From a virus (Duplodnaviria; Heunggongvirae; Uroviricota; Caudoviricetes): a stretch of DNA of 13,234 nucleotides. Below are positions 1,242 to 13,234 of the stretch, piece after piece. The stretch's first letter is position 1. Each line of letters opens with the position of its first letter. The position numbers and the translations under genes were made by a program. The notes beneath the pieces are model-generated. The model saw only the letters and a list, made by a program, of their open reading frames with translations. It had not been told where the DNA came from and did no database searches. The stretch lies in the IMG/VR virus record IMGVR_UViG_2850778813_000008; one strand, given 5' to 3'.

Positions 1242-1295
1242 TGAACCGCCCCGGGAATCCTGGAGACTAAACTCCCTGAGAAAGAGGTAAACAGG

Positions 1296-1622
1296 ATGAC
1301 TAAAAATACTCGTTTTTCCCCCGAAGTCCGTCAGAGGGCGATTCGTATGGTTCTGGAAAGTCAGGGCGAATATGACTCACAGTGGGCGGCAATTTGTTCC
1401 ATTGCCCCAAAGATTGGCTGTACACCGGAGACTCTGCGTGTCTGGGTACGCCAGCATGAGCGGGATACCGGAGGCGGTGATGGCGGGCTCACCACCGCTG
1501 AACGTCAGCGTCTGAAAGAGCTGGAACGTGAAAATCGTGAACTGCGCCGCAGTAACGATATCCTTCGCCAGGCTTCCGCTTATTTTGCGAAGGCGAAGTT
1601 CGACCGCCTCTGGAAAAAGTGA
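1296..1622 (+). CDS. IS629 OrfA
   Basis: 108-aa [36 protein letters not shown]..., HTH-type IS3-family orfA; ends W-K-K-stop over an A-rich run just before orfB. Confidence 0.8.
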
Positions 1623-2509
1623 TGCCACTGCTGGATAAGCTGCGTAAGCTGTACGGGGTCGGACCGGTATGCAGTGAACTACATATTGCCCCGTCAACGT
1701 ATTACCACTGTCAGCAACAGCGACATCATCCTGATAAACGCAGTGCCCGTGCGCAGCGCGATGACTGGCTGAAGAAAGAGATACTGCGTGTATACGATGG
1801 GAATCATCAGGTATACGGTGTGCGTAAAGTCTGGCGTCAGTTGTTACGGGAAGGTATCAGAGTGGCCAGATGCACTGTGGCACGTCTCATGGCGGTTATG
1901 GGACTTGCCGGTGTTCTCCGGGGTAAAAAGGTCCGTACGACCATCAGCCGGAAAGCCGTTGCCGCAGGCGACCGCGTAAACCGTCAGTTCGTGGCAGAAC
2001 GACCTGACCAGCTGTGGGTGGCTGATTTTACTTACGTCAGCACATGGCAGGGCTTCGTCTATGTGGCGTTCATCATTGATGTGTTTGCCGGATACATCGT
2101 GGGGTGGCGGGTCTCATCGTCCATGGAAACGACATTCGTGCTGGATGCTCTGGAGCAGGCGTTATGGGCCCGTCGACCGTCCGGCACGGTCCATCACAGT
2201 GATAAAGGTTCTCAGTATGTATCGCTGGCCTACACACAGCGGCTTAAGGAAGCCGGATTACTGGCATCAACAGGAAGTACAGGCGACTCGTATGACAACG
2301 CGATGGCGGAGAGCATCAATGGTCTTTACAAAGCGGAGGTAATACACCGTAAGAGCTGGAAAAACCGTGCAGAAGTGGAACTGGCCACACTCACGTGGGT
2401 GGACTGGTATAATAATCGACGATTGCTGGAAAGGCTGGGCCATACTCCTCCGGCAGAAGCAGAAAAAGCTTATTATGCTTCCATCGGAAACGATGATCTG
2501 GCAGCCTGA
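1619..2509 (+). CDS. IS629 OrfB (DDE transposase catalytic domain; normally expressed as OrfAB by -1 frameshift)
   Basis: 296-aa ORF in -1 frame relative to orfA, overlapping its stop; contains DDE-type region (...WVADFTYV..., ...HHSDKGSQY..., ...YDNAMAES...). Confidence 0.85.
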
Positions 2510-2551
2510 GTTCACAGATAAAACACTCTCCAGGAAACCCGGGGCGGTTCA

Positions 2552-3120
2552 AACTGCCGGAACTGCCTGCTCGTATAATGACTGCCCTGATCGCTGTGGA
2601 ACATCACCCCGCCGGGCTTACCACGGGTTTCCCATGCCATTTCCAGCGCTTTCATGGTGAGCCTGCTGTCCGGCGAGAACGACATGGCCCAGCCCACTGG
2701 TTTTCTTGCGAACAGGTCGAGAACAACGGCGAGGTACGCCCAGCGCTTACCCGTCCAGATACAGGTCACATCACCGCACCACACCTGATTTGGCTCGGTC
2801 ACGGCGAACTGCCTTTCAAGGTAGTTAGGGATAGCAACATGTTCATGACCACCACGTTTATACCGGTGAGTCGGCTGCTGACAGCTGACCAGCCCCAGCT
2901 CTTTCATGAGCCTGCCAGCAAGCCAGCGTCCCATCTGGTAGCCTCTCCGGGTTGCCATTGTGGCGATGCTTCTTGCTCCGGCCGAACCATGGCTGATGCC
3001 ATGTAGCTCAAGTACCTGACTGCGTAATACAGCCCGTCTGCCGTCTGGTTTTTCAGGACGGTTTTTCCAGTATCTGTAGCTGCTGCGATGAACCCCGAAC
3101 ACTTGGCAGAGTGTGACCAC
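2552..3120 (-). pseudogene. IS911 OrfB, C-terminally truncated by IS629
   Basis: Matches copy-2 OrfB through ...[14 protein letters not shown], then reads FEPPRVSW... into IS629 sequence (track ORF 2512..3120 is a chimera). Confidence 0.8.
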
Positions 3121-3146
3121 AGGATAATGCGCTCTGAGTTTCCCGA

Positions 3147-3449
3147 TTATCGAGAACTGTTCAGGGAGTCTGACATCAAGAGCGCGGTAGCCTTTTTTAA
3201 TATTTCATTCTCCATTTCAATGCGTTGTAGCTTTTTCCTCAGCTTACGTATTTCGATTTGTTCTGGTGTTATCGGAGAGGCTTTTGGTGTTTTGCCCTGA
3301 CGCTCATCACGCAGTTGTTTGACCCATCTTGTCATTGTGGAAAGGCCAACATCCATAGCTTTGGCGGCATCTGCCACCGTGTATTTCTGGTCAACAACCA
3401 GTTGAGCGGATTCGCGTTTAAACTCTGCGCTAAAATTTCTTTTTTTCAT
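3147..3449 (-). CDS. IS911 OrfA
   Basis: [49 protein letters not shown]... recalled as IS911 orfA; track ORF 3147..3485 begins at an upstream in-frame ATG, native start assumed at MKKRNF. Confidence 0.8.
3192..3198 (-). other. IS911 programmed -1 frameshift heptamer A_AAA_AAG (copy 1)
   Basis: Reverse complement CTTTTTT at 3192-3198 corresponds to A AAA AAG near the 3' end of orfA, position-matched to copy 2. Confidence 0.6.
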
Positions 3450-11239: not shown

Positions 11240-11637
11240 CGCTTCAGTTCCTGTATCAGCAGAGTCAGGAGCTTTTCGCTGACATTGCCATTGAAGCGGA
11301 GCGTCCCGTGCCGGAACGTTACCTCACAGCTGATACTGAGGGTTTCCGGATCCTCTGCGAGCGATTCTGGCTGTTCGGCAGCTGCATCGAGAGTCACAGG
11401 AAGTAGCTGGGGGCTCTCTGAAGAAGGTAATAGCAGCTTTCCCTCGCGCCATTGTTGTCGCCATTTGAACAACAGATTGGCGTTAATGCCATTTTCAAGA
11501 GCAAGTTTTGAGATGGATATCCCGGGTTCACAGGAGGCAGCAACGAGCTGCTGTTTAAATTCGGGAGGATAATTAGGGCAGCCTTTTCGCCTGCCGGGAT
11601 TCACATTTTTCTGCATATCTGACACTTTGGTTCCCAC
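11236..11637 (-). CDS. IS66-family TnpA (Orf1)
   Basis: 133-aa ORF immediately upstream of and overlapping tnpB, HTH-like N-terminus. Confidence 0.7.
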
Positions 11638-11708
11638 TACTTATTTGGTGGACACCACTTTGTCTAATTCGTCAGATTCTGACCAGACGGTTCAGGCTGT
11701 ACGCTTAC

Positions 11709-12091
11709 AGTTGATGCAGTCGTTGTACGACTGGATACAGTTGCAGAGGAAAACGCTGTCGAAACATGCGGAGATGGCGAAGGCGTTCGACTATATCCTG
11801 AATCACTGGAATGCGCTGAACGAGTTCTGTCGTGACGGCTGGGTGGAAATAGACAACAACATCGGTGAAAACGCGTTACGATCGGTGGCGGTTGGAAGAA
11901 AAAATTATCTTTTTTTCGGCTCAGACAAGGGAGGAGAAAGTGCGGCGATCATCTACAGTCTGCTGGTCACCTGCAAACAGAACGAAGTGGAGCCGGAGGA
12001 CTGGTTGCGCGAAGTGATCGAGAAGCTCAATGACTGGCCGTCGAACCAAGTGCATGAACTGCTGCCCTGGAACTTCTCGTCTGTAAAATAA
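11709..12091 (+). pseudogene. IS66-family TnpC C-terminal fragment
   Basis: See element 11709-12123; track ORF 11627..12091 includes non-homologous upstream codons. Confidence 0.55.
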
Positions 12092-12123
12092 TCCTTACGC
12101 TACGTACTTCTCGGGGCGCTTAC
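11709..12123 (+). mobile_element. Second, diverged IS66-family remnant: 3' end of a tnpC plus right terminal repeat
   Basis: Plus-strand ORF tail ...[58 protein letters not shown]...ELLPWN resembles an IS66 TnpC C-terminus and is diverged from the neighbouring element; ends ...CTCGGGGCGCTTAC (reverse complement GTAAGCGCCCCGAG) at 12123. Left boundary approximate. Confidence 0.55.
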
Positions 12124-12304
12124 GATTTATCGCCGTCAGCGGGAGCTGAAGGAAGAGCTGAATAGTCTGAAGGATTTGAATTCGGTTAGGAATTTTATCG
12201 TGGAATAACAGAAGCTGCGGCACGTCGTATGCAGGAACGTGCCGCGGTTGGCTGGTAAACTTTCGATAGTGCGAGTATTGAATGATTTCTAGGCGTTATC
12301 GATT

Positions 12305-13234
12305 TGAACCGCCCCGGGTTTCCTGGAGAGTGTTTTATCTGTGAACTCAGGCTGCCAGATCATCGTTTCCGATGGAAGCATAATAAGCTTTTTCTGCTTC
12401 TGCCGGAGGAGTATGGCCCAGCCTTTCCAGCAATCGTCGATTGTTATACCAGTCCACCCACGTGAGTGTGGCCAGTTCCACTTCTGCACGGTTTTTCCAG
12501 CTCTTACGGTGTATTACCTCCGCTTTGTAAAGACCATTGATGCTCTCCGCCATCGCGTTGTCATACGAGTCGCCTGTACTTCCTGTTGATGCCAGTAATC
12601 CGGCTTCCTTAAGCCGCTGTGTGTAGGCCAGCGATACATACTGAGAACCTTTATCACTGTGATGGACCGTGCCGGACGGTCGACGGGCCCATAACGCCTG
12701 CTCCAGAGCATCCAGCACGAATGTCGTTTCCATGGACGATGAGACCCGCCACCCCACGATGTATCCGGCAAACACATCAATGATGAACGCCACATAGACG
12801 AAGCCCTGCCATGTGCTGACGTAAGTAAAATCAGCCACCCACAGCTGGTCAGGTCGTTCTGCCACGAACTGACGGTTTACGCGGTCGCCTGCGGCAACGG
12901 CTTTCCGGCTGATGGTCGTACGGACCTTTTTACCCCGGAGAACACCGGCAAGTCCCATAACCGCCATGAGACGTGCCACAGTGCATCTGGCCACTCTGAT
13001 GCCTTCCCGTAACAACTGACGCCAGACTTTACGCACACCGTATACCTTGTGATTTTCATCGTATACGCGCTGTATCTCTTTCTTCAGCCAGTCATCGCGC
13101 TGCGCACGGGCACTGCGTTTATCCGGATGATGTCGCTGTTGCTGACAGTGGTAATACGTTGACGGGGCAATATGCAGTTCGCTGCATAGCGGTCCGACCC
13201 CGTACTGCTCACGCAGCTTATCCAGCAGTGGCAT
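12305..13234 (-). mobile_element. IS629-like element, inverted, running off the window end
   Basis: Right end TGAACCGCCCCGGGTTTCCTGGAGAGTG... at 12305; orfB on minus strand to 13234. Protein differs from copy 1 at several positions (REQ vs RKL, PLC vs PVC, IQRVYDENHK vs [10 protein letters not shown]). Confidence 0.85.
12347..13234 (-). CDS. IS629 OrfB (DDE transposase domain), copy 2
   Basis: 295-aa ORF, ATG at the last three bases of the window (minus strand); orfA lies beyond the window. Confidence 0.8.
   Translation of the reverse strand: MPLLDKLREQYGVGPLCSELHIAPSTYYHCQQQRHHPDKRSARAQRDDWLKKEIQRVYDENHKVYGVRKVWRQLLREGIRVARCTVARLMAVMGLAGVLRGKKVRTTISRKAVAAGDRVNRQFVAERPDQLWVADFTYVSTWQGFVYVAFIIDVFAGYIVGWRVSSSMETTFVLDALEQALWARRPSGTVHHSDKGSQYVSLAYTQRLKEAGLLASTGSTGDSYDNAMAESINGLYKAEVIHRKSWKNRAEVELATLTWVDWYNNRRLLERLGHTPPAEAEKAYYASIGNDDLAA

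Follow-up and report, generated by a model that had tools for sequence, protein, structure and literature searches.

The 13,234-nucleotide (nt) stretch of DNA analyzed here (the window; IMG/VR virus record IMGVR_UViG_2850778813_000008) carries two nested pairs of inverted insertion sequences (IS), an outer pair of IS629-type elements and an inner pair of IS911 elements, in what is very probably a heavily eroded remnant, the IS-eroded stump of a lambdoid prophage at the Rac site. The 3' part of an integrase gene, a nin-region block, a Q-like antiterminator gene and a tRNA cluster are still present, together with two copies of IS600 and debris of IS66-family elements. The two inverted pairs appear to be unrelated insertions, the inner IS911 pair being old, and past or present inversion of the block that they bracket is possible in principle and not evidenced. 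The window corresponds at 100% identity to positions 2691-15924 of L009, our handle for the locus in CP026814.1 (GCA_002949535.1). There, dbpA-ttcA lies upstream of int and sitDCBA just past the second IS629 copy, and the locus is the Rac-prophage attachment region, with ttcA-int on one side and sit on the other. Across the locus CP026814.1 is 99.8% identical to Shigella boydii Sb227 (CP000036), the close relative that we used for comparison, and from this identity we infer an S. boydii-type chromosome.

A megablast of the whole window against 5,426 complete E. coli genomes found no record with at least 80% window coverage. CP026814.1 was found through an exact-protein match to the Q-like protein. 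Further matches, to QueH, the ybcO'::IS600 open reading frame (ORF) and the 254-aa integrase ORF that lies at 1-765 of the window, gave about 15 assemblies at the locus plus more intact prophages of the same family. Only consensus assemblies were compared. Orientation was counted in the 13 assemblies that carry both IS911 copies, and was mapped with unique blocks (the ttcA flank, int', the queH block, the Q-tRNA block, the IS66 tail and sit). An exact match to the 438-aa read-through ORF ISEc22::IS911 was found in the source record only, and sister strains have point differences there.

Both inverted pairs were recovered in a repeat search. The arms of the inner repeat (2552-3522 and 8351-9321) are 971 nt long, 100% complementary and 4828 nt apart, those of the outer repeat (1622-2553 and 12303-13234) are 932 nt long and 98% complementary, and 26-nt terminal repeats of a 1310-bp element are found at 1241-1266 and 2527-2552. 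Repeats of such length are far beyond chance. The exact tips of the left terminal repeats (IRL) of IS911 are at 3521 (copy 1, minus strand) and 8352 (copy 2, plus strand) and face each other, as a preliminary description of this stretch had stated with coordinates that were one base off. The same description had the IS629 copies inverted (1242-2551 on the plus strand, 12305 onward on the minus strand), and the repeat search and our reading of the junctions confirm this. The homologous part of the IS911 pair, 970 nt, has 0 mismatches. The IS629 copies are 97.7% identical over 1310 bp, with 30 mismatches, nearly all of them within the first 614 bp, and a longest perfect run of 557 bp.

IS911, a member of the IS3 family, is recognized by its length (about 1250 bp), by terminal repeats that begin with TGAAGTGG, and by orfA together with orfB in the -1 frame. 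At 1249 bp, copy 2 has this length; its ends are TGAAGTGGCACAC... and ...GTTGACCACTTCA, and it matches Pfam HTH_Tnp_1 and rve, domains that were found in all of the expected IS ORFs. Copy 1 is not a full copy: only 970 of 1249 bp are left, it has lost its right terminal repeat (IRR) as well as the 3' end of orfB, and IS629-1, which cuts it, abuts the stump at 2551/2552. This copy is therefore incapable of transposition. The 3-bp target duplication looked for at IS911 was seen neither at copy 2 nor at the whole copy 1 of L002; both IS911 copies sit at deletion junctions. The other element, which we take to be IS629 by name and which also goes by the label IS1203 family, is recognized by a length of 1310 bp and terminal repeats TGAACCGCCCCGGG, by a frameshift pseudoknot in orfA/orfB, and by a target duplication of 3-4 bp. 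Both copies are 1310 bp long, copy 2 with the duplication ATT and copy 1 with none. IS629-1 is 99.5% identical to annotated IS3-family elements and has an ALIL frameshift pseudoknot at 1577-1693.

Table 1. Features of the window, with positions counted from its first letter.
Feature	Position	Strand	Evidence
int' (3' part, Rac-site phage integrase gene)	1-846	-	Pfam Phage_integrase, E = 9.7e-24
IS600 copy 1, 5' 395 bp only	847-1241	+	99.2% identical to 6035-6429, 3 mismatches
IS629-type copy 1, complete, 1310 bp	1242-2551	+	terminal inverted repeats, orfA/orfB Pfam matches
IS911 copy 1, IRL-proximal 970 bp only	2552-3521	-	0 mismatches to 8352-9321 reverse complement
Lambdoid nin-region block: queH, hok/sok, rem, DUF1367, truncated ybcO	3522-6034	+	Pfam QueH, HOK_GEF, DUF1367, YbcO
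IS600 copy 2, complete, 1264 bp, within ybcO	6035-7298	+	3-bp duplication GGA
Q-like antiterminator and prophage tRNA cluster	7299-8351	+	Pfam DUF1133, Phage_antitermQ
IS911 copy 2, complete, 1249 bp	8352-9600	+	99.9% identical to elements annotated IS911
ISEc22 (IS66 family), 5' 2109 bp	9601-11709	-	99.6% to annotated ISEc22; Pfam IS66 TnpA, TnpB, TnpC
3' tail of second IS66-family element, then spacer up to IS629-2	11710-12304	+	match to L004
IS629-type copy 2, first 930 bp in window	12305-13234	-	whole 1310 bp in L009 14995-16304

A target duplication can be scored only where both ends of the IS are visible, which the window edge prevents at IS629-2; we read this copy in L009. There it is flanked as CGATT/IS629/ATTTTACG, a perfect 3-bp duplication ATT, and the corresponding empty site, CGATTTTACG, is present in L004 and L005. 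With its own duplication and an empty site in relatives, IS629-2 is therefore a recent simple insertion that has exchanged no flanks with IS629-1. It is also missing from the sister strains L016/L035, L034 and L038, which have all of the other junctions of the window, so the outer IS629 pair formed only in this strain. The copy inserted cleanly beside sitD, and only recently. Both IRL junctions of IS911 are common to all 13 relatives that carry both copies, and for this reason we consider the inner pair to be old. The second IS600 copy is another simple insertion, with flanks ...AAAGGA/IS600/GGAAGG... that compare with the empty site AAAGGAAGG in L003.

The preliminary description had held that neither IS911-2 nor the two IS629 copies have matching flanks, and had taken this to reflect past rearrangement. 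The flanks do differ at IS911-2 (TCC in the tRNA-Gly gene, GGG in ISEc22; TCC / GTT in six relatives) and at IS629-1 (CAT in IS600, AAC in IS911), neither of which has a target duplication, while the claim fails for IS629-2, given its ATT duplication in L009. The flanks of the whole IS911-1 in L002 are GAA / GCC. Missing target duplications usually result from IS-by-IS recombination or from adjacent deletions, and the latter often grow stepwise (PMC11708052). We read the unmatched flanks of IS629-1 and IS911-2, as well as the truncated int, as probable one-sided deletions that end at IS tips, because relatives still carry the lost DNA at each junction. On this reading the unmatched flanks record deletions and not inversion.

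At the left end of the window, the N-terminal 400 bp of int are gone and the break is exactly at the tip of IS600-1, whereas L004, L005, L007, L008 and L037 have an intact int (411-423 aa), with 400 bp more before the IS600 IRL. The order in Sb227 is whole IS600, DUF1233, DUF1187, IS629-1 and the same IS911 stump. Of this series the window has nothing between about position 395 of IS600 and the IS629 tip, and the DUF1233/DUF1187 genes of Sb227 are among the missing parts. The joint between IS600-1 and IS629-1 lies in an 8-bp repeat, CCATTGAA, which occurs in IS600 and across the boundary of the Sb227 flank and the IS629 tip (window 1233-1245 versus L007 3597-3612). This repeat straddles the IS tip, so the joint looks like a plain microhomology deletion rather than transposase cleavage. 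The 4 bp that follow the IS600-1 stump, TGAA, are common to the IS629 tip. In L008, the IS600/IS629 joint has a 4-bp overlap, also TGAA.

On the IRR side of IS911-2, three pieces are absent from the window and its sister strains: an IS110 fragment, the bulk of the second IS66 element and the 3' ~340 bp of ISEc22. The loss next to this IRR, of IS110 and IS66 debris totaling about 2.4 kb, is flush with the tip, and TTCA is shared at the joint. In six relatives the IRR of IS911-2 is followed by the IS110 fragment (GTTGCTGG...), with IS66-2 beyond. IS911-1 is whole in L002, L011, L017 and L030, and its IRR flank is inside AAA_24, an early-left prophage gene as judged from L019, so that about 9.5 kb of early prophage genes are missing across IS911-1. 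Endpoints at IS629-1 are nested among the relatives: on the IS600 side the sequence is kept to 174-178 (L008), 395-399 (the window) or 629 (L004, L037), the endpoints in L008 and the window each having a 4-bp ambiguity, and on the IS911 side it is kept to 381 or 970.

Taken in this way, the prophage stump would have been colonized and cut down by IS600, IS629, IS911 and two IS66-family elements. Individual steps of the erosion are the loss of 400 bp of int beside IS600-1, of the remainder of IS600-1 with the DUF1233/DUF1187 genes beside IS629-1, of the ~2.4 kb of IS110 and IS66 debris beside the IRR of IS911-2, and of the ~9.5 kb of early prophage genes beside IS911-1. The deletions may have arisen by transposase-linked adjacent deletion, by a local hop followed by recombination, or by microhomology joining. 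Microhomology of 4-8 bp was seen at three of the six deletion junctions that we examined. We also noted that the endpoint in ISEc22 (window 9590-9604 versus L022 1188-1204) follows CCACTGGTTCA, which resembles the IRR tip of IS911, GACCACTTCA; this could mean either 4-bp microhomology or an IR-like surrogate site used by IS911.

Stepwise adjacent deletions have been described for IS3-family elements, namely IS150 in the long-term evolution experiment (LTEE) (PMC11708052), and deletions associated with IS629 and the IS-excision enhancer (IEE), with microhomology joining, have been described in E. coli O157 (PMC9943667). As in those deletions, here the IS survives and the DNA on one of its flanks is missing right up to the IS tip, with no target duplication, and the sister strains show a nested series of endpoints like that of the stepwise IS150 deletions. 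In the IEE pathway, in contrast, the IS is excised, and here it stays. Because three of the six junctions have microhomology and the ISEc22 endpoint motif resembles the IS911 IRR tip, we tentatively raise the idea, which we hold to be a minor possibility, that the sister genomes are a natural time course of stepwise, microhomology-assisted erosion beside IS3-family ends, by a pathway in Shigella boydii that is like IEE or microhomology-mediated end joining (MMEJ) or that uses surrogate ends, and not by simple RecA-dependent IS-by-IS recombination.

The orientation of the block also bears on whether it has been inverted. In Sb227, int, DUF1233 and DUF1187 are all on one strand (minus), and in L019, an intact prophage, the minus strand carries DUF1187 and AAA_24 and the plus strand queH ... 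Q. The window, with int on the minus strand and queH/Q on the plus strand, matches both, and its block is therefore in the native lambdoid orientation. E. coli FDAARGOS_943 (L001) was dropped as a reference for native orientation: its integrase is at another site (ybhA/modC) and has no match to window 1-846, which is why the argument is made from Sb227 and L019. Relative to ttcA/int, and to sit where the locus extends that far, the block has the same orientation in 13/13 assemblies, and we found no inversion polymorphism between strains among these 13 assemblies with both IS911 copies. The preliminary description had proposed that orientation may be heterogeneous in a population, and had named single-orientation long reads and identical junctions in related strains as what would speak against this. 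The comparison with related strains, one half of that pair, went against the proposal, as the 13 assemblies share the same IS911 IRL junctions and orientation.

Several points weigh against our reading of independent insertions followed by deletions. The order of events is a parsimony reconstruction based on about 15 assemblies and not on a dated tree. Consensus assemblies are compatible with a minority subpopulation in which the block is inverted. Finally, the reverse complement of 3522-3525 is GGGC, which is also the sequence at 9601-9604, and this is the pattern expected from an inversion through the IS911 pair.

The claim that recombination between the inverted copies could invert the segment between them holds in principle, in that the inverted homology, perfect over 970 bp for IS911 and 97.7% over 1310 bp for IS629 (longest perfect run 557 bp), offers adequate RecA substrates, but no product of such recombination is seen in the 13 assemblies. 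Both pairs would be passive substrates for RecA-dependent inversion, which would be rare and have no obvious consequence. A dead prophage fragment and IS debris are all that either inversion would reorient. No functional consequence is apparent. On general grounds a rare flipped subpopulation is to be expected. It is unlikely, though, that RecA-dependent flipping makes the orientation of 3522-8351 (through the IS911 pair) or of 2552-12304 (through the IS629 pair) heterogeneous above ~1% within cultures. The perfect inverted homology of 970 bp spans a distance of only 4.8 kb, IS copies have recombined at this locus in L005 and L008, and the block seems to hold no orientation-sensitive gene, which would leave little counter-selection. 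However, the flipped state is fixed in 0/13 assemblies, the two IS629 copies differ by 2.3%, through mismatches that cluster within the first 614 bp, and inversion between chromosomal repeats of kb size is, as a rule, a rare spontaneous event in any one generation.

It is very unlikely that the arrangement now seen arose by an earlier inversion through the IS911 pair or the IS629 pair, and that the unmatched flanks stem from it. Such a history would account for the lack of target duplications at IS911-2 and IS629-1 and for the 4-bp reciprocal GGGC between the IRL flank of IS911-1 and the IRR flank of IS911-2, and a true IS629-pair inversion with a split duplication does exist in the relative L008. 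A missing target duplication is, however, no evidence of inversion unless a reciprocal-flank test is passed: in an inversion product neither copy has its own duplication, and swapping flanks across the pair restores both the duplication and a contiguous target. L008, our positive control, passes this test with GTAA. The IS629 pair of the window does not, since copy 2 has its own, intact ATT duplication, with the empty site in relatives, and since the left flank of IS629-1, CAT (in IS600), neither matches nor continues into AAT, the reverse complement of the inner flank of IS629-2 (in unrelated spacer).

The IS911 pair does not pass either. Despite the 4-bp match, GGGC, swapping the flanks rebuilds no target that is continuous with intact ISEc22, and un-inverting the block joins prophage DNA to the middle of ISEc22. 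The intact element reads ...CCACTGGTTCA/GGGCGTATG..., with GGTTCA before GGGC, and not prophage sequence. Of the two junctions, 9600/9601 is derived, and 3521/3522 is ancestral and identical in the six relatives that have the IS110 fragment. Since intact ISEc22 lacks prophage sequence at this place and the relatives differ only on the IRR side, GGGC is a coincidence; we attribute the match to chance, with a probability of about 1 in 256. On these comparisons we rejected it as the trace of an IS911-pair inversion. To this can be added that the block is already in native orientation relative to int and has the same orientation in all 13 assemblies.

There is next to no chance that the queH-Q-tRNA block was brought in by a composite transposon made up of the IS911 pair and the intervening DNA: inverted IS911 copies do bracket a 4.8-kb segment, but L002, which has both copies whole, shows GAA / GTT as outer flanks, with no duplication, the left outer flank is AAA_24, a neighbor gene of the same prophage, the block is in native prophage order and orientation rather than foreign, and copy 1 in the window has no outer end at all. 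We also considered whether the mirror symmetry of the elements (IS629 forward, IS911 reverse ... IS911 forward, IS629 reverse) might be a large inverted duplication. This was ruled out, as IS911-2 is whole and is not joined to IS629-2, and the strain-specific, clean insertion of IS629-2 also counters it.

Recombination between IS copies has reshaped this locus in other strains. Four relatives are rearranged (L008, L030, L005 and L028), none of them through the IS911 pair or the IS629-1/IS629-2 pair. In L008 (CP160647.1, 3192-7903), the equivalent of window 3141-5218 (queH-hok-rem) is inverted between two inverted IS629 copies, and the 4-bp duplication GTAA is split between these copies, which differ by 1 nt, a textbook inversion. 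In L030 (CP026766.1, 1408-7406), the segment tRNA-IS911-2-IS110'-IS66' is inverted relative to int between two IS600 copies of the same orientation, an arrangement that probably arose from two nested events. All of the DNA between the two direct IS600 copies is deleted in L005, which appears consistent with IS600-by-IS600 recombination, and L028 has an inverted IS600-1 that is joined to unrelated DNA. In the window the direct IS600 pair (847-1241, 6035-7298) shares 395 bp with 3 mismatches, and recombination between the two copies could delete 847-6034, with IS629-1, the IS911 stump and the queH-ybcO block. Short-read assemblers may mis-orient or collapse the perfect 970-bp inverted repeat of IS911 and the 395-bp direct repeat of IS600.

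Other insertions and rearrangements were seen in related sequences. The sister strain L025 (CP026866.1) has a third IS911 at 5863-7111, which lies ~130 bp inside the queH block at a distance of only 133 bp from the stump of IS911, and a third IS629 at 3152-4461 with an adjacent 530-bp deletion, making the locus an IS hot spot. Comparison of L018, L020 and L021 with L001 revealed a paralogous prophage at modC/ybhA with an identical QueH. In some genomes the queH block of this prophage is inverted relative to its own integrase and is beside IS600, a further IS-linked inversion within this phage family.

The direct IS600 copies and the nested IS66-family debris at 9601-12304 are additions to what had been described before. 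ISEc22 is inserted into the second IS66-family element, and relatives keep the 11710-12304 stretch unbroken. In L004, 14370-14967 is 99.7% identical to window 11708-12305 and follows an uninterrupted IS66 TnpC of 533 aa. Within the prophage remnant, the nin block is 98.7% identical to the more intact prophages L001 and L013. Its hok/sok type I toxin-antitoxin (4341-4666) is apparently intact, Hok being an ORF of 51-70 aa and the sok RNA scoring 116 bits (Rfam) at 4341-4516. In addition to its truncation by the IS600 insertion, ybcO has an internal deletion of ~80 bp at window 5945-5960, between short GGCGGG repeats, when compared with L003/L013. The Q-like antiterminator gene (DUF1133) is at 7311-7865. 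Downstream of it, the tRNA cluster at 8055-8354 has three intact tRNAs and a fourth, tRNA-Gly, whose 3' end was removed by IS911-2, leaving a partial tRNA (Rfam) at 8300-8354. ARAGORN labels the three intact tRNAs Met(CAT), Arg and Thr and PGAP labels the L001 cluster Ile, Arg, Thr and Gly, so the callers disagree on the first one, Met in the window versus Ile in its L001 homologue.

The remnant can be compared with the defective Rac-type prophage at ttcA of E. coli K-12 and Shigella, which uses the same ttcA/dbpA integration site. As in that prophage, the integrase and the nin-Q-late genes are on opposite strands, and hok/sok and a Q-like antiterminator are present. Unlike that prophage, the remnant keeps no more than int', the nin region, Q and the tRNAs, and has lost the immunity, replication, lysis and structural genes.

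IS-linked inversions abound in Shigella genomes, and in one reconstruction 103 of 114 inversions were on Shigella branches (Seferbekova et al. 2021, PMC8072062). The events at our locus resemble those IS-by-IS events in involving the same IS families (IS3, with IS600, IS629 and IS911, and IS66) in the same group of organisms. As there, inverted and direct IS pairs flank dispensable DNA here, with the inversion of L008 and the deletion of L005 at the same locus. In contrast to the published inversions, the two pairs that we set out to examine have no inversion product in 13/13 assemblies and are potential substrates only. IS-by-IS inversions and deletions, together with IS-adjacent deletions, are a documented hallmark of Shigella, and nothing here departs from what is already known. 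With little significance beyond that, the locus adds one well-resolved case of a Shigella prophage being dismantled by IS expansion.

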